From contig CAZQXN010000009.1 of the NCBI GenBank assembly GCA_964597545.1, positions 16 to 64,015 of the forward strand: a DNA stretch of 64,000 nucleotides, in the 5' to 3' direction. This document shows, in pieces, positions 3,046 through 64,000 of this stretch. The position numbers and the translations under genes are program-made. The notes below the pieces were generated by a model. It did not search any database. It was not told the origin of the DNA and worked only from the letters and a program-made list of their open reading frames with translations. Origin of the DNA: an uncultured Planctomycetia bacterium. GTDB taxonomy: Bacteria > Omnitrophota > Gorgyraeia > 1-14-0-20-64-10. Each line of letters begins with the position of its first letter. The first letter of the stretch is position 1.

Positions 3046-4401
3046 ATGCCAACTCGAAAAACCATTCGATTTAAGAAAACTGAGAAATACCAGGCAGCTG
3101 TCGGCATTGTCCGCCTCCTCTATGAGGCAAGACATGAGGCCTACTTGGTGGGGGGGTGCGTCCGGGATCTGCTGATGAAGCGGACCCCTCAAGATTTTGA
3201 TGTAGCCACCTCAGCTAAGCCTGAGGAGGTCAGCCGCCTCTTCAGGCGGACGATCCCGGTAGGGGTGAAGTTTGGTGTGCAGTTGGTGCTGGTCAAGGGG
3301 GTTCCCTATGAGGTGGCGACTTTCCGGACGGATCAGGCGTACAAGGACGGCCGCCGTCCCGAGGGGGTGATCTTCTCCAACCCCAAGGAGGATGCCCTTC
3401 GACGAGATTTTACAGTAAACTCCCTCTTCTTTGATCCGAAAAAGAATCGCGTGATCGATTTCTGTTCAGGGCAGAAAGATTTAGATGCTCGCGTCATCCG
3501 GGCAATCGGCGAACCGCGCCGCCGCTTCTCAGAGGATCGCTTAAGGATGCTGCGCGCAGTCCGCTTTGCAGCGACCCTAGAATTTACCATTGAGCCCAAG
3601 ACCTTCCGGGCCATCCAGAAGGAGGCCAGGGCAATCACCGAGGTGAGCCTTGAGCGCATCCGGGATGAATTGGTGAAGCTCTTTACCGGACCCCATCCCG
3701 GCAAAGGCCTAGCACTTTTGGACGCAAGCGGTTTATTGCCATATATTCTGCCTGAGGTATCCAAGATGAAGGGGGTGCAGCAGCCGCCGGAGTTCCATCC
3801 GGAGGGGGATGTCTTTGTGCATACCAAACTCCTCCTGGACAAGCTCCCCAGCACCTCTGCGGTGTTGATCTTTGGAGCACTGCTGCACGATGTGGGCAAG
3901 CCTCCGACCTTTAAGGTGAAGGAGCGGATTCGTTTTGACGGTCATGACGTGGTCGGTAAGCGCATGGCAGAGAAGATCTGCCGACGCCTGCACTTTTCCA
4001 ATGCCGAGGGACAGGCCATTGTCGAGATTGTCGGCAACCACATGCGTTTTAAGGATGTCAAACTGATGCGCATGTCCACCCTTAAGCGGTTCTTGGCACG
4101 GCCGACCCTTGCCGAGGAGATGAAGCTTCACCGGGCGGACTGCCAAGTCAGCCACGGGGATCTCAGCAATTGGAGGTTCCTGCGCAGAAAGCAGAAGGAG
4201 TTTTCCATTCGGGAGATACGGCCCAAGCCCCTGTTGCGCGGCCAGGATCTGTTGGCATTGGGTTTTCAGACCAGCCCTTTGATTGGTGTGATCTTAAAGG
4301 CTGTTGAGGAGCGCCAACTGGAGGGGGAGTTGACCGCTAAGGCTCAAGCCCTCGCTTGGGTTAAGGAATCTTTTTCGCCGGGAAAGAGAGATATCCGATG
4401 A
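3046..4401 (+). CDS. cca: CCA-adding tRNA nucleotidyltransferase / poly(A) polymerase family with HD domain
   Basis: GGCVRDLLMKRTPQDFDVATSA nucleotidyltransferase head, RRDFTVNSLFFDP, and an HD motif (LHDVGK). The upstream extension of the ORF to 2647 overlaps the opposite-strand gene and was discarded. Confidence 0.8.
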   Translation: MPTRKTIRFKKTEKYQAAVGIVRLLYEARHEAYLVGGCVRDLLMKRTPQDFDVATSAKPEEVSRLFRRTIPVGVKFGVQLVLVKGVPYEVATFRTDQAYKDGRRPEGVIFSNPKEDALRRDFTVNSLFFDPKKNRVIDFCSGQKDLDARVIRAIGEPRRRFSEDRLRMLRAVRFAATLEFTIEPKTFRAIQKEARAITEVSLERIRDELVKLFTGPHPGKGLALLDASGLLPYILPEVSKMKGVQQPPEFHPEGDVFVHTKLLLDKLPSTSAVLIFGALLHDVGKPPTFKVKERIRFDGHDVVGKRMAEKICRRLHFSNAEGQAIVEIVGNHMRFKDVKLMRMSTLKRFLARPTLAEEMKLHRADCQVSHGDLSNWRFLRRKQKEFSIREIRPKPLLRGQDLLALGFQTSPLIGVILKAVEERQLEGELTAKAQALAWVKESFSPGKRDIR

Positions 4402-6394: not shown

Positions 6395-6997
6395 TTAGCG
6401 CTGGGGGCTGTGCTTGGCTTCAAAGGCGGTGATGACCGCCTCTTGTTTCAGAGTCACAGCGATGGGGTCGAGCCCGCGGACTAAGAGCTCCTTAACGGCC
6501 GGATCGATCTCGAAGCTAAAGACAAGTTCCTCATCCAGGTGCAGGGTGACCCGCTGGTGATCCAGAGCCACCGTGGCCTCTAGCCCCTGGGTGCGTCCTA
6601 CCCTCTGAAAGATTTCATCTACCTCAGCTTCTTCTAGCGTTACCGTCAGCAGCCCATTCTTGGCGCTGTTGTTGCGGAAGATGTCAGCAAAGCTTGGTGC
6701 AATGACCACACGGAAACCCGCCTGCTGAACTGCCCAGACGGCGTGCTCCCGAGAGGAGCCGCAGCCAAAGTTGTTCCGGACCACCAGAATGGAGGCTCCC
6801 TTAAAGCGCGGAAGGTTCAACGCAAACTCCGGATTGGGTTTGCCCTTTGAAAGCTTCGCCCAGTCATAGAAGAGGGATTTTCCAAAACCGGTCTTCTTGA
6901 TCGATTTTAAGAACTGCTTGGGGATAATCTGGTCGGTATCCACATTGGACCGGTCTAGGGTAACCACGAGGCCGCGGTGGCTCTTAAAGGGCTTCAT
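6395..6997 (-). CDS. leuD: 3-isopropylmalate dehydratase small subunit
   Basis: 200 aa of LeuD/aconitase swivel-domain sequence; its start overlaps the leuC stop (ATGA). Confidence 0.9.
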
Positions 6998-8403
6998 CGG
7001 TTCTTACCCCATTTGCGGATGTCCACAAAGTGTCCTTCCACAGCTGCCGCTGCCGCCATCTCAGGGGAGACCAAGTGAGTTCTTCCTCCCTTGCCCTGGC
7101 GGCCTTCGAAGTTGCGGTTAGAAGTAGAGGCGCAGCGCTCCCCGGGTTTCAGCTGGTCTGGGTTCATCCCTAAGCACATGCTGCAGCCCGAGTGTCTCCA
7201 GTCAGCTCCAGCACTCTTAAAGATCTTGTCCAATCCCTCTGCTTGCGCTTGGGCGCGCACAGGCTCTGAGCCGGGGACCACCAGGACCTTAACACCGGGG
7301 GCAATCTTGTGTCCTTTAAGCATTTGTGCGGCGGCCCTTAAATCCTCGATGCGGCCGTTGGTGCAGCTGCCGATGAAGACGGTGTTGATTCTAATCTGTT
7401 CCATTGGGGTGCCTGGAGTCAGCCCCATGTAGCTCAGCGCCTGCTCCACGTCCTTGCGGCTGTAGCCGGGAACCTTTCCTGGGTCAGGGACGCGGCCTGC
7501 GACATCGATTACCATCCCAGGGCTTGTTCCCCAGGTAATCTGAGGAGCGATCTCGAAGGCATCCAGGGTGACGGTTTTATCGAATAGGGCGTTCGAATCG
7601 CTGGGCAGCGTGCGCCAAAAGGCGAGCGCCTTCTCCAGAGCTGCACCCTTGGGCGCAAAGGGACGATCTCCAGAGGCGATGTATTCGAAGGTGGTCTCGT
7701 CAGGGGCGATCATGCCGGCACGGGCTCCAGCCTCAATCGACATGTTGCAGATGGTGGTTCTTGCCTCCATGGAGAGGGCGCGAATTGCAGAACCGGCATA
7801 CTCCAGGACATGACCGGTGCCGCCGGCCGCTCCAATGGTGCCGATGAGCTTTAAGATCATGTCCTTGGCCGTGACGCCAGGGGAGAGGGAGCCGGTAAAT
7901 TCTACCCGAAAAGTCTTAGGCTTGGTTTGAGTCAGGCACTGGGTGGCCAGGACGTGCTCTACCTCAGAGGTTCCAATCCCAAAGGCCAAAGCTCCGAAGG
8001 CACCGTGCGTAGAAGTATGGGAATCCCCGCAGACCAGGGTGATGCCGGGCAGGGTCAGTCCCAGCTCAGGGCCGATGATGTGGACAACGCCCTGACGGTC
8101 GCTGGATAGGCCATAAAGCGTAATGCCAAAATCCCGACAGTTCTTCTCCAGGGCCTCGATCTGGGCGCGGGAGGTCAAATCACGAATGTTGACCCGGTCA
8201 TCGGTCGGAACGTTGTGGTCCATTGTCGCAAAGGTGAGCTCCGGTTTGCGGACACCCCTTTTATTCAGGCGCAGCCCTTCAAAGGCCTGAGGGGAGGTCA
8301 CCTCATGGACCAGGTGGCGGTCGATGTAGAGCAGGGTCCCTCCGCCGGGCTGGACCGCCACTGCGTGGGCCTGCCAGATCTTTTCAAACAGGGTTTTCGG
8401 CAT
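6994..8403 (-). CDS. leuC: 3-isopropylmalate dehydratase large subunit
   Basis: Aconitase-family large subunit; N-terminus [15 protein letters not shown] parallels E. coli LeuC. The start was chosen at the internal ATG (8403), since the longer ORF runs to 8535. Confidence 0.9.
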
Positions 8404-52592: not shown

Positions 52593-52619
52593 TTGATTGA
52601 AAACCATTATAGCTTGACC

Positions 52620-55184
52620 ATGACAGCTCCACCATCTTCCAGCAGGGCTCCCGATCGCCCCCAGGCACCTTGGGCGGTGGGGTCCCCTTATGTCAATACG
52701 ATCTCGCCCCAGGCTGAGCCTGCTTTTCCCGGGGATCGGAAGATTGAGCGGCGCATCAAGAGCTTGATCCGTTGGAATGCGATGTCTATGGTGGTCAAGG
52801 CCAACCGAATTCACGACGGCATCGGAGGCCACATCTCCACCTTTGCTTCCTCTGCCACCCTTTATGAGGTTGGTTTTAACCACTTCTTCCGAGGGCCCCA
52901 CGGGGAGGGGCCGGGGGACCTGATCTATTTCCAAGGGCATGCGGCTCCGGGCAATTATGCACGGGCTTTCCTGGAGCGGCGTCTGGACATTAAGCATCTG
53001 CATCACTTCCGCCAAGAATTGGCGCACGGGGGAGGGGGGCTTTCCTCCTATCCCCACCCGTATCTGATGCCCTTCTTCTGGCAGTTTCCGTCGGTTTCCA
53101 TGGGGCTGGCGCCGGTCATGTCCATTTACCAGGCCCGTTTTAGCCGTTACCTTCAGGCCCGAGGATTTCTTAAAGGTCCAGAGCCTAAGGTTTGGGCCTT
53201 TGTGGGTGATGGCGAATGCGACGAACCAGAGTCCTTAGGAGCTTTGACGCTGGCCTCGCGAGAGGGACTGGACAACCTGATCTGGGTCGTCAACTGTAAT
53301 CTCCAGCGGCTGGATGGGCCGGTACGCGGCAACGGGAAGATCATCCAGGAGCTTGAGGCCGCTTTCCAGGGGGCCGGGTGGAATGTGATTAAGGTCATCT
53401 GGGGCTCGAATTGGGATCCCCTTTTGGCCGCCGATCAGAAGGGACTGCTCTTAAAGCGCATGGAAGAGGCGGTGGATGGGGATTACCAGAAATACTCGGT
53501 TGAGCCCGGAAGTTACGCCAGGAAACATTTCTTTGCGAAATATCCAGAGCTTCTGCGCATGGTCAATCACTTGACCGACGTCGAGATCCAGAAGCTGGTG
53601 CGGGGCGGGCATGATCCCGAGAAGGTGTATGCTGCCTATCATGCAGCGGTTCGCCACCAAGGGGCTCCCACGGTGATTTTGGCCAAAACCGTCAAGGGGT
53701 ATGGATTGGGGGAAGCCGGCGAGGGGCGTAACATCACGCACCAGCAGAAGAAGCTCAATGAGAAGGAGCTTCGGGAATTCCGAAGCCGCTTTGACATCCC
53801 GATCAACGATGAGGAGGTAGTGGATGCCCCTTTTTATCGGCCTCCCTTAGAGAGCGAAGAGACCCGGTATTTGTTGGAGCGCCGCAAGGCACTGGGTGGT
53901 TTTGTGCCGGAGCGCAAGGTCCATCCGGTGGCCCTTAAGGTGCCTGGAGCTGACCTCTATCAGGAGTTTTTAGCTGGATCCGGGCGGACATCAGTTTCCA
54001 CCACCATCTCTTTTGTTCGGCTGTTAAGCAAGCTGCTTCGGGATAAGGAGGTGGGTCGTCAGATTGTTCCGATCATTCCGGATGAAGCCCGAACCTTTGG
54101 CATGGATACCCTCTTCCGACAGGTTGGTATCTATGCGAACCGGGGCCAGCTGTATGAGCCGGTGGACCGGGAGACCCTCCTTTTTTACCAGGAGGCGAAA
54201 GACGGTCAGCTGCTGGAAGAGGGGATTACCGAGGCCGGTGCCACCTCTTCGTTTATTGCAGCAGGGACTGCTTATTCCAACTTTCATGTGCCCATGATCC
54301 CCTTTTACATTTACTACGCCATGTTTGGTTTTCAGCGGGTTGGGGATCTGCTTTGGGCGGCTGCGGATTCCCGAACCAAGGGATTCTTGCTGGGGGCGAC
54401 GGCAGGCCGCACCACCCTTCAAGGGGAGGGGCTGCAGCACCAGGATGGACACAGCCATCTGCTGGCCACGACAATCCCGACGCTCCTCACCTATGATCCG
54501 GCCTTTGCCTATGAGGTGTCGGTGATCATTCGAGAGGGGATGCGGCGGATGTATGTGGAGGGGGAGGAGATTTTCTATTACTTGACCCTCTACAATGAGA
54601 ATTATCCGATGCCGACAATGCCAAAGGGGGTCGAGGAAGGAATCCTTAAGGGGCTCTACAAGTACCGATCGGGGGCGAAGGCCAAACGGCACAAGGTGCA
54701 CCTGCTGGGCTCCGGTCCGATCCTAAATCAAGTGCTTGAGGCGCAGAAGCTCTTGGCAGAGCGCTACGATGTCTCTGCCGATGTCTGGTCAGCTACCAGC
54801 TATAAAACATTGCGCACCGAAGCCATGGAGGCGCAGCGGTGGAACATGCTGCATCCCACCGAGCAGCCCAAATGCTCCTACTTGGAGTCGGTTTTAAAGG
54901 GCGAAGAAGGTGTTTTTGTGGCGGCCTCAGACTATGTGAAGGCAGTTTGTGAGCAGATTGCCCCTTGGGTGCCGGGGGGATTGACAGTGTTGGGGACAGA
55001 TGGGTTCGGGCGAAGCGACACTCGAAAGGCCTTACGGCGCTTCTTTGAAGTGGATACTGAGATGATTATGGTGGCCACGCTTTACGCGCTTGCACAAAAA
55101 GGAAAGGTGGGGATGCCCTTGGTCGCACAGGCCATCGACGATCTTGGCGTTGATCCTGAGAAGCTCCATCCCCAATTTGCATAA
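52620..55184 (+). CDS. aceE: pyruvate dehydrogenase E1 component (homodimeric type)
   Basis: Colinear with E. coli AceE (RRIKSLIRWNAM, DLIYFQGH, GDGECDEPES, etc.). Confidence 0.9.
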   Translation: MTAPPSSSRAPDRPQAPWAVGSPYVNTISPQAEPAFPGDRKIERRIKSLIRWNAMSMVVKANRIHDGIGGHISTFASSATLYEVGFNHFFRGPHGEGPGDLIYFQGHAAPGNYARAFLERRLDIKHLHHFRQELAHGGGGLSSYPHPYLMPFFWQFPSVSMGLAPVMSIYQARFSRYLQARGFLKGPEPKVWAFVGDGECDEPESLGALTLASREGLDNLIWVVNCNLQRLDGPVRGNGKIIQELEAAFQGAGWNVIKVIWGSNWDPLLAADQKGLLLKRMEEAVDGDYQKYSVEPGSYARKHFFAKYPELLRMVNHLTDVEIQKLVRGGHDPEKVYAAYHAAVRHQGAPTVILAKTVKGYGLGEAGEGRNITHQQKKLNEKELREFRSRFDIPINDEEVVDAPFYRPPLESEETRYLLERRKALGGFVPERKVHPVALKVPGADLYQEFLAGSGRTSVSTTISFVRLLSKLLRDKEVGRQIVPIIPDEARTFGMDTLFRQVGIYANRGQLYEPVDRETLLFYQEAKDGQLLEEGITEAGATSSFIAAGTAYSNFHVPMIPFYIYYAMFGFQRVGDLLWAAADSRTKGFLLGATAGRTTLQGEGLQHQDGHSHLLATTIPTLLTYDPAFAYEVSVIIREGMRRMYVEGEEIFYYLTLYNENYPMPTMPKGVEEGILKGLYKYRSGAKAKRHKVHLLGSGPILNQVLEAQKLLAERYDVSADVWSATSYKTLRTEAMEAQRWNMLHPTEQPKCSYLESVLKGEEGVFVAASDYVKAVCEQIAPWVPGGLTVLGTDGFGRSDTRKALRRFFEVDTEMIMVATLYALAQKGKVGMPLVAQAIDDLGVDPEKLHPQFA

Positions 55185-55185
55185 G

Positions 55186-56439
55186 ATGGAGATCCGACTT
55201 CCCCAACTGGCTGAAGGGGCTGATTCCGGAACCGTGGTCAATCTCTTGGTTTCTGTAGGGGATAAGATCGAGAAGGATCAGACGATTTTGGAGCTGGAGA
55301 ACCAAAAGGCCGTTGCCCCCATTCCATCCCCTGCGTCCGGAAAGGTAGAGCAAATTCATGTCAAGGAAGGGGATGCGGTTGCGGTTGGCCAACCCTTGAT
55401 TGTTTTGGCTGAGGTTGGCAGGGACTTAGGTTCTTCTGAGGGTCGGGCAGCTCCTGCGGCTTCAACGGTTCGCTCCATCCCGAAGCCGACCACCCCTTCG
55501 GGTGCGGTTCCTGGCAGCCGTCAGGTCCCGTCACCCTCTGGGGCATCACCGCCTGCAGCCCCCTCCATACGTAAGATGGCAGAGGAGCTGGGATTGAATT
55601 TGACTCAGATTCCTGGCAGCGGTCGCGGGGGAAGGATTACCCGGGAAGATGTTCAGGGTTATCTGGCCGCACTTCAATCTACTTCGGGAGGACAGAAGCC
55701 TGCAGCAGCAGCGCCTCAAATTGATTTTTCCAAGTGGGGCAAGGTGACCCGCAAGCCATTATCCCCCTTACGGCAGACCGTGGCTCGCGTGATGACAGAG
55801 TCATGGAATAGCATCCCCCATGTCACTCAGTTTGGCCAGGCCGATGTCACCGACCTCTTGGCGCTCAAGCAGAGGTACGACAGTGATTACCGCCAGAGGC
55901 AGGCGCCCTTGACCATGACCTCCTTTATCTTGAAGGCTGTGATTCGCCCCCTTCGAAAGTTCCCCCTCTTTAACGCCAGCCTTGATGAGGCGGCCAAGGA
56001 ATTGGTGCTCAAGGAGTACCTGCACATCGGTATTGCTGTGGATACTCCGGAAGGTCTTTTAGTCCCGGTCCTCAGGGATGCAGATCGGCAGAGCACCGAA
56101 GAGCTCTCCAGGCAACTGAGCGCGCTTGCCGAGCGCGCAAGAGCGCGTAAGCTTAACCTAGATGAGATGCGGGGGGCCTCCTTTACTATCTCGAATCAGG
56201 GGGGGATTGGCGGGACACACTTTACCCCGATCATCCCTTGGCCGCAGGTGGCCATTTTGGGGGTGGGGCGCGCAGCGGCACAGCCGGCGCCTCGGGGCAA
56301 TACCGTTGAGAGCCGAACGATGCTTCCCTTGGCCCTTTCCTATGATCACCGGGTGGTTGACGGCGCTGATGCTGCCCGATTTATTACAGAACTTATCAAC
56401 ACCCTTGAACAGTTTCCTGAAGAGGAGGTCAGACCGTGA
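55186..56439 (+). CDS. aceF: dihydrolipoamide acetyltransferase (E2)
   Basis: Lipoyl domain (ELENQKAV), Ala/Pro linker, subunit-binding domain, catalytic domain with DHRVVDG. Confidence 0.85.
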   Translation: MEIRLPQLAEGADSGTVVNLLVSVGDKIEKDQTILELENQKAVAPIPSPASGKVEQIHVKEGDAVAVGQPLIVLAEVGRDLGSSEGRAAPAASTVRSIPKPTTPSGAVPGSRQVPSPSGASPPAAPSIRKMAEELGLNLTQIPGSGRGGRITREDVQGYLAALQSTSGGQKPAAAAPQIDFSKWGKVTRKPLSPLRQTVARVMTESWNSIPHVTQFGQADVTDLLALKQRYDSDYRQRQAPLTMTSFILKAVIRPLRKFPLFNASLDEAAKELVLKEYLHIGIAVDTPEGLLVPVLRDADRQSTEELSRQLSALAERARARKLNLDEMRGASFTISNQGGIGGTHFTPIIPWPQVAILGVGRAAAQPAPRGNTVESRTMLPLALSYDHRVVDGADAARFITELINTLEQFPEEEVRP

Positions 56440-57872
56440 CAAAGAGCCACTCCCACGCCATCGAAACCGACCTGGTTGTTCTCGGGGCAGGCCCAGGGGG
56501 AACTGCAGCTGCCTTTTATGCAGCGGACAAGGGCAGGCAGGTGGTTCTTGTTGAGCAGGCCGAGCGTTTGGGCGGCGTGTGCCTTCATCGCGGCTGCATT
56601 CCCTCCAAGGCGCTGCTGCATGCAACTGAGCCCCTTCGAGAGGCCGAAGCTTCCAAGGGGCGCGGGATTGATCTGGGTACCCCCAAGGTACAGTCTCAGA
56701 AGCTTCGCGCATGGAAGAATTCGGTGATTGAAAAGTTGGCCGGCGGATTGGAGCTGTTGCGCAGGAAGCGCAACGTCGAACGGGTCATCGGCCGCGGCCA
56801 CTTTGAGGATTCCAACACGTTGCGGGTGGAGACGCCCGAAGGGCAGCTCTTTATTCGGTACAAGTCTGCAATCATTGCGGTGGGTTCCAGGCCTGCCATG
56901 CCGCACACCTTTGATTTGGGCAATCCCCGCATCATGACCTCCACCGAAGCGTTGAATGTAGAGGAGACCCCCAAGGAGCTGTTGGTGGTAGGCGGCGGCT
57001 ACATTGGGATGGAGTTGGGGACCCTGTATGCCTCACTCGGCTCCCAAGTGGTCATGGTTGAGGCATTGAACACCTTGTTGTTAGGGGCTGATCCGGATTT
57101 GGTTCGCCCGGTCATGCGCTATGCTGAGCGAGCTTTCAAGGCGGTCCGTTTGAACACTAAGGTTCTCAAGATGGCCACCTCCGGCAAGAAGATCAAGGTG
57201 GCCATGGAGACCGATGGCAACAAAACCGAAGAGAATTACGACCGCGTCCTGGTTTCGGTGGGGCGCGCCCCGAATTGCGATGATCTGGGCCTGGAGAACA
57301 CCCGGGTTGCCCGAGACGAAAAGGGATTTATCCAGGTCAATCAGCGCCAACAGACGGCAGATTCTGCCATCTACGCTATCGGGGATGTGGTGGGTGGGGT
57401 TCTCTTGGCCCACAAGGCCTCTAAGGAGGCGCGGATTGCCGTGGAGGTGATCATTGGAGAGGCCAGCGCTTTCGAGAACATTGTCATTCCTGCGGTGGTC
57501 TTTGCTGATCCCGAGGTGGCTTGGTGCGGTTTGACCGAGACTCAGGCCCGAGAGAAGGGCATCCCGATTCAGGTCACGCGCTTTCCATGGGGCGCCTCCG
57601 GGCGCGCCATTACGCTGGATCGGACTGACGGGATGACCAAACTGATTTTGGAACCCCAGACCGATCGGATCCTGGGCGTGGGGATTGTTGGCGTCGGGGC
57701 AGGAGAACTGATCAGCGAAGGAGTGCTGGCGGTTGAGATGGGAGCGACTGCCAAGGACTTGGCAGAAACCGTCCATCCTCACCCCACCCTCTCAGAAACC
57801 CTTATGGAGTCTGCCGAGGCCTTTTACGGAACTGCAACCCATACCTTTTCCCCGCGCGCGAAACGCCCGTGA
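56436..57872 (+). CDS. lpd: dihydrolipoyl dehydrogenase (E3)
   Basis: GAGPGG FAD motif, redox-active CLHRGCIPSK, and a C-terminal HPHPTLSE motif. Confidence 0.9.
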   Translation: MTKSHSHAIETDLVVLGAGPGGTAAAFYAADKGRQVVLVEQAERLGGVCLHRGCIPSKALLHATEPLREAEASKGRGIDLGTPKVQSQKLRAWKNSVIEKLAGGLELLRRKRNVERVIGRGHFEDSNTLRVETPEGQLFIRYKSAIIAVGSRPAMPHTFDLGNPRIMTSTEALNVEETPKELLVVGGGYIGMELGTLYASLGSQVVMVEALNTLLLGADPDLVRPVMRYAERAFKAVRLNTKVLKMATSGKKIKVAMETDGNKTEENYDRVLVSVGRAPNCDDLGLENTRVARDEKGFIQVNQRQQTADSAIYAIGDVVGGVLLAHKASKEARIAVEVIIGEASAFENIVIPAVVFADPEVAWCGLTETQAREKGIPIQVTRFPWGASGRAITLDRTDGMTKLILEPQTDRILGVGIVGVGAGELISEGVLAVEMGATAKDLAETVHPHPTLSETLMESAEAFYGTATHTFSPRAKRP

Positions 57873-58762
57873 GCGTGTTGCCCCCCTCCTCCGTGCGGCC
57901 GCAAACGGCTCCTCTGTATATTGACCCCCGCGTTGTCGTAGGCGAGAAGCGTCAGGCCATGAACCGTCAGGTCTTGAAAGAGTGCGCCGAGGACCTGGAG
58001 GATTTCATGGGCCGCTCCATGCAGGAGATCGCGGAGGAGTGGTGGGCCAACAAAGAGGCGGTGCACAGGCTTGAAGAGCATCTGCTGCAAACCGCAACCG
58101 ATCCCCGCCCGATCACAGAATTCTATGCAACGACCGACTATTACCTCTACGAGAGCACCTACTGGGAGGCGCAGGCGGACAAACAGCAAGAGTTTCGCAA
58201 GCTGTGGCTGGCATGCCGCCGATTGGGGCTTACGCGTCTGTTGGATTTCGGTGGTGGCACAGGGGGTGCCACCCGCTATTTTCACAAGCGTGGGATTGCC
58301 TGCGACTATTTGGATGTCCCGGGAAGAACTTTTGATTTTGCGCGCAGGCGGATTGAAAAGCACAATATCCCAGTTCGGATCTTCAGCGCTTTAGATCCAA
58401 AAGCACCGCCTCAGGGGGTCTATGACGGGGTGATGGCCTATGATGTGCTGGAACACCTCTTCGATGTCCCTGCAGCTCTGCGTCAGATTGCTGGTCTGTT
58501 GCGGTCGGGGGGAATCTTCTTTGTGAAGTCCACTTTTATGGGGGGTGGGGCGCACCTCTCCAAAAACGATATCTACGAAGAGCTCCCCAACCTGAACCGA
58601 ACAGCAGCCGAGTGCGGGTTTCGCTTTTTGGGGCAGCTCAAAACCGACCGGATGAGCCGCTTACTCTCCCGCTTAGGGCTCAGGTACGCAACCCTGGGGG
58701 TTCGGATTGCGCTCCGCAAGAAGACCGGCGGCAACATTCTTGTGTACCGGAAGGGTTCATGA
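57869..58762 (+). CDS. class I SAM-dependent methyltransferase
   Basis: LLDFGGGTGGAT motif I; possible ATG start at 57959. Confidence 0.65.
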   Translation: MSVLPPSSVRPQTAPLYIDPRVVVGEKRQAMNRQVLKECAEDLEDFMGRSMQEIAEEWWANKEAVHRLEEHLLQTATDPRPITEFYATTDYYLYESTYWEAQADKQQEFRKLWLACRRLGLTRLLDFGGGTGGATRYFHKRGIACDYLDVPGRTFDFARRRIEKHNIPVRIFSALDPKAPPQGVYDGVMAYDVLEHLFDVPAALRQIAGLLRSGGIFFVKSTFMGGGAHLSKNDIYEELPNLNRTAAECGFRFLGQLKTDRMSRLLSRLGLRYATLGVRIALRKKTGGNILVYRKGS

Positions 58763-59028
58763 TGGCAGGCGAAACAGCACAGCGCATCCTGGAATTTGTT
58801 CAGGGCACCTTTGCCGTCCGCCTTGAAAGCGCGGGGAAGCTGGATCTTTCCAGCCCGCTGTTTTCTTCTCAGGTGATCGACTCGATGGGAGCGGTAGAAT
58901 TGCTGGCATTCATCGAGCAGGAATTTCATGTTTCTATCGACCTGACGATTGAAGAGCTGCGGCGCTTGGACAGCGCGGAGAATTTTGCCGCCCACGTCGA
59001 ATCCCTTCAACAGGCTCAGCCGAAATGA
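58759..59028 (+). CDS. acyl carrier protein (DltC-like)
   Basis: 89 aa with a VIDSMGAVEL phosphopantetheine-site pattern; ATGATG overlap with the upstream stop. Confidence 0.65.
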   Translation: MMAGETAQRILEFVQGTFAVRLESAGKLDLSSPLFSSQVIDSMGAVELLAFIEQEFHVSIDLTIEELRRLDSAENFAAHVESLQQAQPK

Positions 59029-60002
59029 TGTCCTGGAAGCCGTATGAGTTGACCATTGGGTTGCCGCAGACCAACTACCGGCATTTCGCTGAGGTGAAGT
59101 TGCTCATGGAGGCCGGTAACTTCTTCTGGTGGGCTCTGGGGGAGGCCATGGGCTCCCCTGTATCGAAACTTCGTTCCGACACAGGGGAGCCGCTCTATGC
59201 GACCATCTACTTCATCGAGGAGAACTTCCCGTTCGAGCGCTCCCTGCCGAGTTTCACGTTGGATGACCGGTTGAACTTCTTCGTTGCGCTGCGCACCCTG
59301 AGGAATACAAGCGTCGAGGGCCGCGTTGTCTTTGATCGCGCAGACCGAATTGCTTCCGCGGAGGAGAACAGTTCCTGGTGCACTGAAGGATCTGCCCATC
59401 CATGGGTTCGATACGGCTCCATTTTTGCCGCCCCTGAAGCCGGCACCAACAAGCTGACCGTCGCCTCCCCGGCCAATGCCACCGCAACGAAGCTGCCCCC
59501 GTTGCCGTTTGGGGAGAATCCCGCTCGCATTACGCGAGAAGCAGAGGCCACCGGTCAACTGGGGGTGATCCCAGAGGACTGGGTTTCCTTGGATGCTGCG
59601 GGGTCGGTTTCGGTCACATACGCCATCGATCCGGACCGGGATACCAACGCGGCGGGGTTGGTTTATTTCGCCAATTATGTTGCTTTCATGGAGGTGGCAG
59701 AGCGTCAGGTGCTGGTTCGGCCCACGGCATCGGGCAAAGGGCTTACCAGCGAGCTCCTTGCCCAGCGCCGGGTGCTGCGGCGGAGAATCGCTTATTACGG
59801 CAATGCCAGCTTGTCTGGCCAACTGATGATTGCGGTTTCTCGATTTGCACCGCCGGCCTCATCTGACCTGGTTGGGCTTCGGTACCGCATCACCCTGGCA
59901 GGACAGGAGAAGCCGATCTGTCTCTCAGAGGTGCTGTTTGCCCTTTCGCCGCTGGCCAGTCTACACTCTCAAGGAGCTGCCGCCGAAGGCAAGAAAAGGT
60001 GA
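59025..60002 (+). CDS. LnmK-like double-hotdog protein (probable ACP acyl-loading acyltransferase/decarboxylase)
   Basis: Two 4HBT-like halves (…NYRHFAEVKLLMEAG… and …DTNAAGLVYFANYVAFMEVAE…), ~325 aa as in LnmK-like proteins. Confidence 0.45.
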   Translation: MMSWKPYELTIGLPQTNYRHFAEVKLLMEAGNFFWWALGEAMGSPVSKLRSDTGEPLYATIYFIEENFPFERSLPSFTLDDRLNFFVALRTLRNTSVEGRVVFDRADRIASAEENSSWCTEGSAHPWVRYGSIFAAPEAGTNKLTVASPANATATKLPPLPFGENPARITREAEATGQLGVIPEDWVSLDAAGSVSVTYAIDPDRDTNAAGLVYFANYVAFMEVAERQVLVRPTASGKGLTSELLAQRRVLRRRIAYYGNASLSGQLMIAVSRFAPPASSDLVGLRYRITLAGQEKPICLSEVLFALSPLASLHSQGAAAEGKKR

Positions 60003-60003
60003 G

Positions 60004-61050
60004 TTGAGTTCTCCATCCGGATCTACCCGTTCCCACTGGCGTCGTCTCTTCGTCTGCTTTGCACTGCTGGCAGCGGTAGATCAAGCGGTCCTACCCGCCC
60101 TGCAAAGCTCAGAAGCCCGCCGGTATGAGTCGACCGACCCGATGCGATTCGGAAATTCAGATCTTTTCCTGATCGGTCCCATGACCGAGTATCTTCGAGA
60201 GCACCCTGTGGGTCTAAAGCCCCGCGCGATCTTCTTAGGGGACTCCATTGTCTGGGGATATCTCCTGGAGACCGGAGAAACGCTTCCGGCGAACTTTCAG
60301 CGTTTTGTTCCAAACGTCAAGGTTTTGAACCTAGGCAGCAACGGTTTTGATGCTGTGAGCGCCTATCTTATGACCAAGGCGCTCATCGATTCGGTCGACA
60401 CCTTCTATTATGTCTATGAGCAGGATGATCTGGATCGTCGGCCCCACCCCCTGCTGGCCCGGCTCATTCCGGTAAGCCCCGAGGATACTTCCCGGTTTGA
60501 GCTTGAACTTCCCCCGCCCTGGGTAGCTACTTTCAACCGCATGGCCCACTTCTGGAAGTTGGCGCGATATTCCTACCGCCTTCAAGGGGCGTTGTTTGGG
60601 AACTCGGGCCGGCAGTACCTGTACTCCAAGGGGAGGCGGCTTGGGAAGTTGCTGCACAACCCTTCGGGGCAGGGGGAGGCTGCGGAAGGGACCAGGAAAG
60701 CTGCTTTGCGCGTGCAGTGGAGTTCCCCCTCAGCCGGAGGTCCCCTTTCCGAAGAGGAGGCGGGCGATTTAGCCAGGCGTCATCCCATGTTGTGGGAGTA
60801 CGCCTCCTTGCTGGCCGGCCACCAAAAGCAAGGGGTCATCATCGAGTTTGCGCATCACAAGAAAATCTTGAGCGACTCGGAGCGACGGAAGTTCAACCGT
60901 CGTTTCCGTCCCTTTGTGGTCTTTGCGAAGCTGACCGTTCCCGATGCTTATCTCATGCCTGATGAAGCCCACCTGGCAGCTGAAGGGACTCGAGCTGTTG
61001 CTTCAACTCTCTCCGAACATGCCAGCCCTTCTCGGTTGCTGTCCAGATGA
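60004..61050 (+). CDS. membrane-anchored SGNH/DltD-like protein
   Basis: N-terminal TM segment (LFVCFALLAAV) followed by a GDS-type block (AIFLGDSIVWGY), positioned like the DltD PIYGSSEL region. The TTG start is uncertain. Confidence 0.35.
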   Translation: MSSPSGSTRSHWRRLFVCFALLAAVDQAVLPALQSSEARRYESTDPMRFGNSDLFLIGPMTEYLREHPVGLKPRAIFLGDSIVWGYLLETGETLPANFQRFVPNVKVLNLGSNGFDAVSAYLMTKALIDSVDTFYYVYEQDDLDRRPHPLLARLIPVSPEDTSRFELELPPPWVATFNRMAHFWKLARYSYRLQGALFGNSGRQYLYSKGRRLGKLLHNPSGQGEAAEGTRKAALRVQWSSPSAGGPLSEEEAGDLARRHPMLWEYASLLAGHQKQGVIIEFAHHKKILSDSERRKFNRRFRPFVVFAKLTVPDAYLMPDEAHLAAEGTRAVASTLSEHASPSRLLSR

Positions 61051-62219
61051 TTGTCAATGAACCCCTCTTTATCGCGCTGGTAATTGGGACGGTTTGCACC
61101 TTCTTCCTGGTCCCGGTCCGCTGGCGCCATGGGATCCTGATCCTCTCCGGGATATGCCTCTACCTCTTTTACGCGGCGGAGTTTCTTCCGCTGGTGGCGG
61201 GGCTCGTGCTGCTGACCTATTGGGTCTCGGGGCGCCTTGGGGTCTGGATCAATGTGGCAGCGCTTGTTGGCGTTATGTTCTACTTCAAACTGCAGGGAGG
61301 TTTTGGGGTGATCTCAGCCGGGATCACCCCCGGCCAAACCCTGGTGGACCGACTGGTTTTCCCTTTGGGGTTGTCGTTTCTCACCTTTGAGTTGATCCAT
61401 TTCTCGATTGAGCGCCAACGCGGAAAAATCCCCCAAGCCTCCCTGGCTAGCCTTGCCGCATTTGCCTTTTTCTTCCCGTGCCGCATCGCAGGACCGATCA
61501 AACGCTACCAGCCATTCGAGAAATCGGTGCGGAGCTCGCGATGGTCTGTTGAGCAGCTCTACCGCGGTTTGGTGCGTATCCTGTGGGGGTTCTTGAAGAA
61601 GGTGATGTTGGCCGATCTCCTGGTCCTTGCGGTGCCCTGGATGGGTCAGGCACACCACCCCTTGCAGGTGTGGGGGGGGCTGGTGGCGTATTCCTTTTAC
61701 ATCTTCCTTGATTTCAGCGCCTATTCAGACATCGCCATTGGGATCTCATGGCTGATGGGTTTAAACGTACCGGAGAACTTCCGGGCTCCGTACCTGAGCC
61801 GCAACATCCGAGAATTCTGGAGCCGGTGGCACATTTCCCTTTCCAGTTGGCTGGGGGACTATCTGTTTCTACCGATCAGTAAGCGATTGGCCACCTCGAA
61901 GGTGCATCTGAAGCCTCAAGCAGCTGCCGCGGCAGGCTTCTTGATAACCTTTGCCATCTGCGGGCTGTGGCATGGGCCGTCCGCCAACTTTCTGCTGTGG
62001 GGCCTGTACCATGGTGCGCTGCTCTCTCTGTACTCCTTCTACAGAGCTTCGAGGTTTTCAACCGTGCGTTTGGATGCTATGCTGAAGTGGTGGCCAGCGC
62101 TCCATCAGGTCCTCGCTCCTGGAATCACCTTCCTGGTTGTAACCATTGGCTGGGTTCTCTTTGCAGTGCAGGGCAGTGCCATCCCTGAGGTTTTTCAAGC
62201 GTTGTGGACAGGAAGATGA
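61047..62219 (+). CDS. MBOAT-family membrane O-acyltransferase (DltB/AlgI-like)
   Basis: The conserved block FWSRWHISLSSWLGDYLFLPI closely matches the DltB catalytic-His region. Confidence 0.85.
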   Translation: MIVNEPLFIALVIGTVCTFFLVPVRWRHGILILSGICLYLFYAAEFLPLVAGLVLLTYWVSGRLGVWINVAALVGVMFYFKLQGGFGVISAGITPGQTLVDRLVFPLGLSFLTFELIHFSIERQRGKIPQASLASLAAFAFFFPCRIAGPIKRYQPFEKSVRSSRWSVEQLYRGLVRILWGFLKKVMLADLLVLAVPWMGQAHHPLQVWGGLVAYSFYIFLDFSAYSDIAIGISWLMGLNVPENFRAPYLSRNIREFWSRWHISLSSWLGDYLFLPISKRLATSKVHLKPQAAAAAGFLITFAICGLWHGPSANFLLWGLYHGALLSLYSFYRASRFSTVRLDAMLKWWPALHQVLAPGITFLVVTIGWVLFAVQGSAIPEVFQALWTGR

Positions 62220-62326
62220 GAATCTGGCTGGTGGACATTGCAGTGGGGTTTATTTTGGCTCTCGGGGTGATCCTGGTCGTTTTGTTTTCAACCTTTGATT
62301 CCACCTTTCTCTATCGTGGGTTCTAG
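62216..62326 (+). CDS. unannotated 36-aa single-TM protein ending FLYRGF (DltX-like C-terminal FxYxxF motif)
   Basis: MRIWLVDIAVGFILALGVILVVLFSTFDSTFLYRGF; its ATG overlaps the MBOAT stop (ATGA). It is absent from the ORF track because it is shorter than 60 aa. Confidence 0.45.
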   Translation: MRIWLVDIAVGFILALGVILVVLFSTFDSTFLYRGF

Positions 62327-62775: not shown

Positions 62776-63744
62776 ATGGTTGGGAGTCAGGAGGTAACGG
62801 CGCAGGATTTAGATACCAAGGTTTTTATTGATGAGAAGACTGCCGAGATTTCCGCCGCGGCGGGAACTGGCGAGGCGATCAACGCCCTTTCGGGCGGGGT
62901 TGATTCCTCTGCCGTGACGATGCTGGGCCACAAGGCCTTAGGCCCACGCCTTAGAACCTATTTTGTTGATAACGGGATTATGCGTGAAGGTGAGCCCCAA
63001 AAGGTGGCCAAGATCTTCAAGGCGCAGGGTGTTCATGTGGAGATTGTTGACGCCCAGGACGAATTCTTCAAGGCACTCAAGGGTATTACTGATCCCGAGG
63101 AAAAGCGGGAGGCCATCACCCAGACCTTCTATAGGGATGTCTTTGGCAGGCTGGTCCGGGAAAGTGGGGCGAAGCACCTGCTGCAGGGCACGATCTTGAC
63201 CGATGTCGATGAGACCGTTGCGGGAATCAAGAGGCAGCACAATGTGTTTGAGCAGCTGGGCATCGATCCGCAAGCCGCTTTTGGCTATAAGATCATTGAG
63301 CCCTTGATCCAACTGCGCAAGGACGGTGTTCGCAAGGTGGCCGAGGCCCTGGGATTGCCTGAGTCGATCTACAACCGCATGCCCTTTCCAGGTCCGGCCC
63401 TCACAGCTCGGGTCATCGGTGAGGCAACGCGAGAGAGGATTGCGACCGTCAGGATTGCTACCCGCATTGTTGAGGAGGAGCTCGCTTCAACCCAGGCGTT
63501 TCAATACATGGCGATTCTACACGAGGACAGAGTCACCGGGATGCGCCAGAACAAGCGGGATTTCGGCTGGCAGCTTGAGATTCGCTGCTGGGACAGCGTG
63601 GATGCCAGGAAGGCAGAGCCGACAAAGCTCCCCTACGATCAGCTCAAGAAGATGGCCGATCGGCTGACGGAAGAGGTTCCCGGGGTGGTCAGCGTGACCT
63701 ACAATATCACCTCCAAGCCTCCCTCCACCATGGAGGCCGTTTAA
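62776..63744 (+). CDS. guaA: GMP synthase ATP-pyrophosphatase subunit (GuaA C-terminal domains as a stand-alone protein)
   Basis: PP-loop SGGVDSS, FVDNGIMREGE, and a C-terminal dimerisation block MPFPGPALTARVIGE, all colinear with the E. coli GuaA C-terminus; AAGGAGG Shine-Dalgarno. Confidence 0.8.
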   Translation: MVGSQEVTAQDLDTKVFIDEKTAEISAAAGTGEAINALSGGVDSSAVTMLGHKALGPRLRTYFVDNGIMREGEPQKVAKIFKAQGVHVEIVDAQDEFFKALKGITDPEEKREAITQTFYRDVFGRLVRESGAKHLLQGTILTDVDETVAGIKRQHNVFEQLGIDPQAAFGYKIIEPLIQLRKDGVRKVAEALGLPESIYNRMPFPGPALTARVIGEATRERIATVRIATRIVEEELASTQAFQYMAILHEDRVTGMRQNKRDFGWQLEIRCWDSVDARKAEPTKLPYDQLKKMADRLTEEVPGVVSVTYNITSKPPSTMEAV

Positions 63745-63797: not shown

Positions 63798-64000
63798 ATG
63801 AGCGGAATCTTTGGAGTGGTTTCAAAAGAGAGCTGTTCTCAGGATTTGCTCTATGGGACCGATTATCATTCCCATCTCGGGACTGAATTCGGCGGGATGG
63901 CGGTTCTGGGAAAGCTCTTTAACCGTCAGATTCACAGCATTGCCCAGAGCCAATTTAAATCGAAATTCTATGATGATCATAAAAAGATGCAGGGGAACAA
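63798..64000 (+). CDS. partial CDS (3' end outside window); N-terminus MSGIFGV resembles class-II (Ntn) glutamine amidotransferases but with Ser in place of the Cys2 nucleophile
   Basis: The frame stays open to the window end; GAGGAG lies upstream of the ATG. Confidence 0.3.
   Translation, partial: MSGIFGVVSKESCSQDLLYGTDYHSHLGTEFGGMAVLGKLFNRQIHSIAQSQFKSKFYDDHKKMQGN

Follow-up and report, generated by a model that had tools for sequence, protein, structure and literature searches.

Gene layout at the end of the cassette

The stretch analysed is the 64,000-nt piece of contig CAZQXN010000009.1 (assembly GCA_964597545.1), called the window below; the whole stretch was covered, and all coordinates are window positions. 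The subject is a gene of 36 codons that overlaps the end of a gene for an MBOAT protein and closes a five-gene cassette. Records of MBOAT loci retrieved for comparison carry numbers with the prefix L. The microprotein gene, its parts and its partner are as follows.

62216-62326, + strand: 36-residue microprotein gene, stop codon included; its ATG overlaps the MBOAT stop codon as ATGA, and orthologues of exactly 36 codons are found in 13 loci
62237-62287, + strand: predicted single transmembrane helix, residues 8-24, IAVGFILALGVILVVLF, read from the sequence; the hydrophobic column pattern is shared by 25/25 family members
62306-62323, + strand: C-terminal hexapeptide F31-L-Y33-R-G-F36, the FxYxxF 'acyl shuttle' motif as defined in PMC12148441; F31, Y33 and F36 do not vary among 25 members
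61047-62219, + strand: short DltB-like MBOAT, 390 residues, without a C-terminal FxYxxF of its own; Pfam MBOAT match at 2e-19

The microprotein was translated directly from the window DNA and reads MRIWLVDIAVGFILALGVILVVLFSTFDSTFLYRGF. The 3' end of the MBOAT gene reads ...TGG ACA GGA AGA TGA, with the stop codon at 62217-62219. The microprotein frame reads ATG AGA ATC TGG... from 62216 and ends with a TAG stop at 62324-62326, 2 nt before the start of the next open reading frame (ORF). The codons of F31, Y33 and F36 occupy 62306-62308, 62312-62314 and 62321-62323, respectively. The first-pass annotation of this DNA had placed a 36-residue ORF at 62216-62326, with an ATGA overlap to the MBOAT stop, and had described its product as DltX-like in architecture, one transmembrane helix being followed by a C-terminal FxYxxF. 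Coordinates and peptide were recovered exactly as quoted, residues 8-24 are hydrophobic and the last residues are FLYRGF. By analogy with DltX, and from the K/R at position 2, the protein would have its N-terminus inside and its C-terminus outside.

All ORFs of the window (stop-to-stop, at least 25 residues, six frames; 1483 in total) were screened for the terminal motif. The microprotein is the only one ending in F.Y..F, and no other ORF of the set matches the relaxed ending [FYWLIMV].Y..[FYWLM]. From composition, 0.02 ORFs ending in F.Y..F are expected in the window and one was observed. An Rfam scan of the window gave no RNA family.

Conservation of the microprotein gene

Orthologue DNA was gathered in three ways: by exact look-up, by genome scan and by metagenome scan. 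For the protein collection, the 40-residue GTG-extended form of the microprotein ORF was used as the query. Relatives of the MBOAT number in the thousands; the 120 best are 41-64% identical to it, and all of these are about 365-416 residues long. A 36-codon orthologue trails orthologous MBOAT genes (40-64% identity) in 13 independent loci (L036/37, L038-40, L041, L042, L044, L045, L046, L048, L050, L121 from Omnitrophica, L123 and L124). When the 15 loci with an MBOAT orthologue (at least 40% identity) and usable flanks were considered, 13 had the 36-residue microprotein, one had a DUF5989 gene (L122) and one had none in its 8 kb of sequence (L047); two further loci, which end too near the MBOAT for presence of the microprotein to be judged, are outside the 15.

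In 10/10 aligned orthologues the gene has exactly 36 codons, and eight of these ten loci show an overlap of 4 or 1 nt between its start and the MBOAT stop. It is separate from the MBOAT gene in L038 (106 nt downstream) and in L121 (127 nt downstream). Since it has its own start there, after a spacer of 106-127 nt, the microprotein would be translated independently and not as a frameshifted tail of the MBOAT. Pairwise Nei-Gojobori comparisons gave a proportion of synonymous differences (pS) of 0.4-0.9 versus a proportion of non-synonymous differences (pN) of 0.13-0.41 for all pairs except the closely related L045/L046, and pN ranged over 0.03-0.30 in the last 17 codons. Change is close to saturation at synonymous sites and low at non-synonymous ones. 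When 1.84 billion representative proteins were searched exhaustively with hmmsearch, 19 microprotein clusters were returned, almost all of 35-37 residues. In an alignment of 25 members, no columns other than D7, F31, Y33 and F36 are invariant. Because three of these four columns belong to the FxYxxF hexapeptide, this hexapeptide is the part held fixed by selection.

The microprotein ORF is therefore a genuine gene under purifying selection, and its translation is to be expected from the conservation pattern. The earlier reading of the ORF as a gene coupled to that of the MBOAT was borne out; the loss of conservation that would have refuted it was not seen, the ORF and its motif being kept beside orthologous MBOATs. 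The description of the ORF as unannotated stood only in part. The window alone does not decide this, and the exact 36-residue product is already present in the public protein collection (database protein P0121); however, the orthologue, which was called by gene predictors in L036, L038-40, L123 and L124, was missed by them in L037 (uncalled at 3578-3688) and L121 (uncalled at 6900-7010). The annotation of the Omnitrophica genome GCA_016179785.1 leaves an empty 344-nt gap where the 36-residue gene lies, and the family is thus under-annotated.

One locus has an unusual layout. In L048 (3535-5325), the 36-residue gene is found 1.7 kb downstream of the MBOAT, directly after a copy of the MBOAT 3' end (...ALMFGVGR). 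This arrangement looks like inserted or duplicated DNA; the closely related L047 shows no microprotein in the 5 kb downstream of its MBOAT.

Composition of the cassette

The order of the cassette is DltC-like carrier protein, LnmK-family acyltransferase/decarboxylase, SGNH-like protein, short MBOAT and, last, the microprotein. Its first three genes are listed below.

58759-59028, + strand: acyl carrier protein (ACP), 89 residues, with a D-S-M phosphopantetheine site; Pfam PP-binding match at 8e-5, weak DltC and ACP matches in NCBIfam
59025-60002, + strand: LnmK-family bifunctional acyl-CoA:ACP acyltransferase/decarboxylase (double hot-dog), 325 residues; TIGR04098
60004-61050, + strand: SGNH-like protein, 348 residues, with an N-terminal signal-anchor and a TTG start; assigned from motif conservation and from AlphaFold2 (AF2) and Foldseek results

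Start/stop ATGA overlaps are found at 58759, 59025, 61047 and 62216. The carrier protein gene has such overlaps at both ends, and its orthologues, of 84-93 residues, occupy the same position. The 325-residue protein belongs to the LnmK family according to NCBIfam TIGR04098 (109.9 bits for a cutoff of 100, E 1.3e-31). It matched LnmK in the PDB (4hzo/6x7l) at 5e-10 over residues 29-270. When it was aligned to LnmK 4hzo, a Tyr was found conserved opposite the nucleophile Tyr62, and Phe65 was replaced by Ile.

The N-terminal anchor of the SGNH-like protein is preceded by Arg-Arg. Across 18 homologues, S81 (F-x-G-[DNS]-S), N109, N113-G114 and H323 are invariant and D320 (D320-x-x-H323) is nearly so. 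No Pfam family, DltD included, was matched by this protein, and NCBIfam gave a weak GDSL match at 0.008. The AF2 model had a predicted local distance difference test (pLDDT) value of 80, and its top Foldseek matches in the PDB were TesA, DltD and PatB, all weak (E ~1e-3, template modelling (TM) score 0.2-0.6). The public version of the product has 289 residues (P0130), which cuts off the N-terminal membrane anchor. Translation from the TTG at 60004, which follows the LnmK stop by 1 nt, yields the 348-residue protein, in line with orthologues of 330-356 residues.

The order ACP, LnmK, SGNH, MBOAT was found by tblastn in all orthologous loci whose upstream sequence is long enough, in permuted form in L122, and the cassette is colinear in L036-40, L042, L047, L048, L050, L121, L123 and L124. 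The nearest named relatives are metagenome-assembled genomes (MAGs) of Omnitrophica and Vicinamibacterales. Genes of glycan type are neighbours of the cassette in other loci: glycosyltransferases, a polysaccharide deacetylase, sugar-nucleotide epimerases/dehydrogenases and a Kdo transferase with LpxK. This neighbourhood suggests that the acceptor polymer is a glycan.

The MBOAT and its missing motif

DltB is the nearest relative of the window MBOAT by sequence and by fold. The best NCBIfam match was DltB TIGR04091, with 213 bits, under the cutoff of 375, and the only PDB sequence matches were DltB 6bug/8jem (2.5e-35). The AF2 model (pLDDT 89) gave DltB as the top Foldseek matches at TM 0.74, with HHAT and PORCN at ~0.7. 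The conserved catalytic His and the core are present, H309 (W-H-G) and H262 being invariant in 40 homologues.

Among 121 sampled loci, the motif was fused to the C-terminus in 74/74 long MBOATs, in a form that agrees with the relaxed pattern given above and is most often F[ILV]YF[QRN]F. The short MBOAT homologues ended in the motif in 0/120 cases. Since long MBOATs have the motif fused and short ones are without it, the short MBOAT would need the motif in trans. In the window the FxYxxF motif is found once, on a separate product, in keeping with one motif per MBOAT, fused or in trans.

An apparently frameshift-split long MBOAT was noticed in L057 (1002-2328), where the frame that matches MBOAT has an Arg-rich end and another frame holds ...AAFIYFQF. 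A LnmK-like gene (31% identity) lies nearby on the opposite strand.

Comparison with DltX and with known acylation systems

The first-pass annotation had taken the microprotein for a member of the DltX family (DUF3687/PF12459). At E<=1, the window microprotein had no Pfam match, and an NCBIfam scan was also negative. PF12459 was matched by 0/25 members of the microprotein family at E<=10. A DltX-like sequence matched PF12459 at 7.2e-17 over profile positions 2-43 of 43; this control establishes no more than the presence of the model in the library and its sensitivity. No DltX chain was found by phmmer against PDB chains with either the microprotein or the DltX-like sequence, and a tblastn search of plasmids with the DltX-like sequence, done to gather real DltX genes, gave no match; the comparison with DltX was therefore made with the Pfam hidden Markov model. 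From these profile searches, the microprotein belongs to a sequence family other than DltX, though it is DltX-like in architecture. Assignment to the Dlt pathway itself was likewise not upheld. Neither the window cassette nor any orthologous one contains an AMP-binding or DltA protein, and the position of the loader is taken by the LnmK-family enzyme. All remaining components of a Dlt-like relay are encoded next to the microprotein: the carrier protein, the motif-less short MBOAT of DltB type and the anchored SGNH-like protein.

The likeness to the Dlt pathway (DltA, DltB, DltC, DltD, DltX) is one of arrangement. DltX and the window protein are both single-pass microproteins ending in F-x-Y-x-x-F beside a short motif-less MBOAT, and a carrier protein is present in both systems, as is a membrane-anchored SGNH-type transferase, a putative one in the window. 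The chemistry to be expected would be the same: thioester, O-acyl-Tyr, O-acyl-Ser, polymer. However, the window microprotein has 36 residues, whereas DltX has ~45-50, and its gene follows that of the MBOAT as the 3'-most of the cassette. A LnmK-type decarboxylase/acyltransferase is found in place of the ATP-dependent ligase DltA, and the cargo is probably a short acyl group. Relatives are found in Omnitrophica, Vicinamibacterales (Acidobacteriota) and soil/groundwater metagenomes, rather than in Firmicutes.

The PatA/PatB, AlgI/AlgJ/AlgX and WssH/WssI systems of Gram-negative-type bacteria combine an MBOAT with an extracytoplasmic SGNH transferase, the putative counterpart of which in the window is the SGNH-like protein; they have the same terminal Tyr motif and act on envelope polymers. 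Their MBOATs, of ~470-500 residues, have two additional C-terminal helices that bear the motif, and they use acetyl-CoA directly, with no carrier protein in between (PMC12148441). The window MBOAT, in contrast, has 390 residues and leaves the motif to a separate product, and the cassette includes a carrier protein together with a proposed loader for it. Non-Dlt MBOAT/SGNH pathways are said to have neither a carrier protein nor a DltX-like microprotein (PMC12148441, 2025), a statement to which the window cassette is an exception.

The third system considered was LnmK/LnmL of leinamycin beta-alkylation. The window protein passes the LnmK cutoff, keeps the Tyr nucleophile and adjoins a discrete ACP. 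Its context is different: there is neither a polyketide synthase nor a HMG-CoA synthase, and the ACP is followed by the SGNH-like protein and the MBOAT, so that the acyl group would presumably leave on the ACP for the envelope instead of serving in polyketide branching.

Other small proteins ending in the motif

In L122 (Vicinamibacterales), a 52-residue DUF5989 (PF19451) protein ending in APFVYAGF is encoded at 1081-1239, directly upstream of the MBOAT-ACP-LnmK-SGNH cassette. This locus has no 36-residue gene, and the DUF5989 gene is its only motif-ended ORF. DUF5989 proteins resemble the microprotein in being single-pass, ~52 residues long and ended by F-[IV]-Y-x-x-F, but they are a separate sequence family. 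PF19451 was matched by 0/25 microprotein family members at E<=10, and hhalign of the 36-residue family against DUF5989 aligned the last 9 C-terminal columns only (probability 61%). The replacement of the 36-residue protein by an unrelated DUF5989 in L122 argues that the functional requirement is a terminal motif on a membrane helix, more than the remainder of the sequence.

DUF5989 genes were also seen away from MBOAT genes. In L038 (8052-8210) and L039 (7130-7288), the product, of 52 residues, ends in ...APFIYTLF, and its gene is flanked by those of SxtJ (PF19588) and a carbamoyltransferase. DUF5989 may be another family of acyl- (or carbamoyl-) shuttle microproteins.

Other short MBOATs, 29-43% identical to the window MBOAT, go with a small ORF family of the form '...HYxLYRxxxPxxPFIY[VMQ]AF' (HYxLYR family; L001, L002, L005, L006, L013, L015, L019, L032, L056, L078, L097 and L098). 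The ORF is placed at most ~180 nt from the MBOAT stop, or ~1.3 kb downstream past one gene of ~400 codons. No Pfam or NCBIfam match was obtained for this family, the hosts of which are MAGs of Verrucomicrobiae, Melainabacteria, Planctomycetota, Chloroflexota, Gammaproteobacteria and Bacteriovoracaceae. More small transmembrane ORFs ending in x-Y-x-x-F (FIYTDF, FIYIDF, FIYVAF, FVYVVF, YLYANF, YLYGNF) were found downstream of short MBOATs in L012 (6883-7107), L014 (3178-3423), L052 (~6394), L089 (~3057), L030 (8226-8354), L003 (7948-8079) and L004 (8206-8334). Some adjoin the MBOAT gene and others are ~1.2-1.4 kb downstream; the MBOAT of L012 is preceded by a GDSL protein. Motifs encoded in trans seem common and diverse.

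Proposed acyl relay and alternative explanations

We consider it likely that the gene is translated into a 36-residue single-pass microprotein which, as the last member of the five-gene cassette, relays an acyl group via Tyr33. Its function would most likely be that of an acyl-O-Tyr shuttle between the MBOAT and the SGNH-like protein, the carrier role of Tyr33 being suggested by the invariance of the motif and by the context. In the Dlt system, DltB moves D-alanine from DltC to the Tyr of the C-terminal FXYXXF of DltX, and DltX passes it to a DltD serine (PMC12148441). PatA auto-acetylates the Tyr of the same motif, which is fused at its C-terminus on two extra helices, and the acetylated hexapeptide acts as the PatB donor; acyl-Tyr intermediates were demonstrated for DltX and for PatA (PMC12148441). 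The C-terminal tail of DltX binds in the DltD active site (PMC13653941). Leinamycin LnmK converts methylmalonyl-CoA into propionyl-S-ACP via a propionyl-O-Tyr62 intermediate (PMC11350588).

In the proposed relay, the LnmK-family enzyme, as the loader of the carrier protein, would decarboxylate (methyl)malonyl-CoA and place propionyl or acetyl onto it. The acyl-S-carrier protein would then dock at the cytoplasmic face of the DltB-like MBOAT. The motif-less MBOAT would pass the acyl group through its tunnel to Tyr33 in the extracytoplasmic FLYRGF tail of the microprotein, and this tail would hand it to Ser81 of the membrane-anchored SGNH-like protein. The latter, proposed as the extracytoplasmic acyl acceptor/transferase in the DltD/PatB position, would esterify an envelope polymer, probably a glycan. 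Because the cassette is without DltA and has a LnmK-type loader instead, the acyl group is probably not D-alanine, and propionyl or acetyl is the probable cargo.

Several observations weigh against this relay. The charge bias around the microprotein helix is modest, so that the C-out topology leans mainly on the analogy. Apart from the hexapeptide, no homology between the microprotein and DltX is detectable, and positions 4-5 of the microprotein motif (R/Q-G) are unlike the F-[QRN] of fused MBOATs and unlike DltX. The SGNH assignment rests on motifs and on weak structural matches (E ~1e-3). Finally, no microprotein was found in L047 within the 8 kb of sequence examined, 5 kb of which are downstream.

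An alternative is a structural or assembly role of the microprotein, for instance as a membrane tether of the MBOAT and the SGNH-like protein; its Tyr would then not be a carrier, and the MBOAT would give the acyl group directly to the SGNH-like protein or the polymer. DltX does also scaffold a DltB-DltD-DltX complex (PMC12148441; PMC13653941), but we find this explanation unlikely here, given that the invariant residues cluster in the exposed C-terminal hexapeptide and not in the helix, that the DUF5989 protein standing in at L122 is unrelated and shares the last 9 columns only, that the fused terminal motif is retained by every sampled long MBOAT and that the Tyr is the acyl carrier in both experimentally tested systems (PMC12148441). 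More doubtful still is a divergent dlt operon, in which the microprotein would be a true DltX homologue and the cassette would D-alanylate an envelope polymer. The same architecture and C-terminal FxYxxF, the DltB matches of the MBOAT as its best by family and structure, and the weak DltC match of the carrier protein are what such an operon would show. It is made very improbable by the failure of all 25 family members to match PF12459 at E<=10 (7e-17 for the DltX-like control), by the 213 bits of the MBOAT versus the DltB equivalog cutoff of 375, by the presence of a LnmK-family enzyme in the loader position with no DltA in any orthologous cassette, and by the SGNH-like protein being without a Pfam DltD match.

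It was also considered that the ORF might not be an independent gene, being a chance ORF, a pseudogene remnant of a frameshifted long MBOAT or the 3' part of a frameshift fusion. The ATGA overlap could in principle permit such a fusion, and long MBOATs bear the motif at their own C-terminus. However, the split, with its own start codon and fixed 36 codons, is stable across MBOATs of 40-64% identity; the gene is detached by 106-127 nt in L038/L121 and is under strong purifying selection. A fusion of one helix would misplace the motif, as long MBOATs need two extra helices to bring it outside (PMC12148441). The chance expectation in the window is 0.02. The chance-ORF and frameshift-remnant explanation is effectively refuted. 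The acyl-Tyr shuttle remains the preferred explanation for the microprotein.

Genes flanking the cassette

57869-58762, + strand: S-adenosylmethionine-dependent methyltransferase (Pfam Methyltransf_23/12/11), translationally coupled to the cassette in the window

A methyltransferase at the same position was found by tblastn in no orthologous cassette, and it is probably not a core part. Membership of the core was also weighed for the upstream pyruvate dehydrogenase genes and, on the downstream side, for a 142-residue membrane protein and the PP-loop ATPase; like the methyltransferase, these were rejected, as none recurs beside orthologous cassettes. A chain of overlaps extends over 56436-62326: E3 lipoamide dehydrogenase/methyltransferase (GTGA at 57869), then ATGA at methyltransferase/ACP, ACP/LnmK, SGNH/MBOAT and MBOAT/microprotein. 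Through it, the cassette and a complete pyruvate dehydrogenase E1-E2-E3 set (52593-57872) fall into a single transcription unit, a linkage seen in none of the other loci.

Downstream of the cassette, a GuaA-like PP-loop ATPase without a glutamine amidotransferase domain is encoded at 62776-63744. An ORF beginning MSGIFGV (63799-64000) resembles class-II amidotransferases and has a Ser where the catalytic Cys of that class would be expected. In L036 and L038, too, the cassette has asparagine-synthase-like genes as neighbours.

Significance

Acyl-tyrosine shuttle chemistry is already known from DltX and PatA. Three elements appear to be new with respect to the literature cited here: a Dlt-type architecture (carrier protein, motif-less MBOAT, trans microprotein) outside Dlt, a LnmK-type loader within such an architecture, and the 36-residue microprotein family itself. 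No description of this five-gene cassette was found in a literature search, and an earlier mention of non-Dlt microproteins is possible.

More tentatively, Omnitrophica, Acidobacteriota and other lineages with few cultured members could use the cassette for an undescribed, carrier-protein-dependent short-chain acylation, possibly a propionylation, of an envelope polymer, with a LnmK-type decarboxylating loader replacing DltA. As part of the same speculative picture, the FxYxxF shuttle could be a modular device provided by interchangeable, unrelated microproteins (DltX, the 36-residue family, DUF5989 and the HYxLYR family), and the DUF5989/SxtJ/carbamoyltransferase trio might ferry carbamoyl. 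The cassette has both a carrier protein and a microprotein, outside Firmicutes and with a different loader. If the proposal is true, the Dlt-type architecture would not be confined to D-alanylation, and short metagenomic MBOATs labelled 'AlgI' would rely on a gene of ~110 nt that is sometimes missed by gene callers. A small transmembrane ORF ending in FxYxxF beside a motif-less MBOAT would then serve as an annotation aid, and a new envelope modification, with an acyl group that is probably propionyl or acetyl, would become experimentally tractable.

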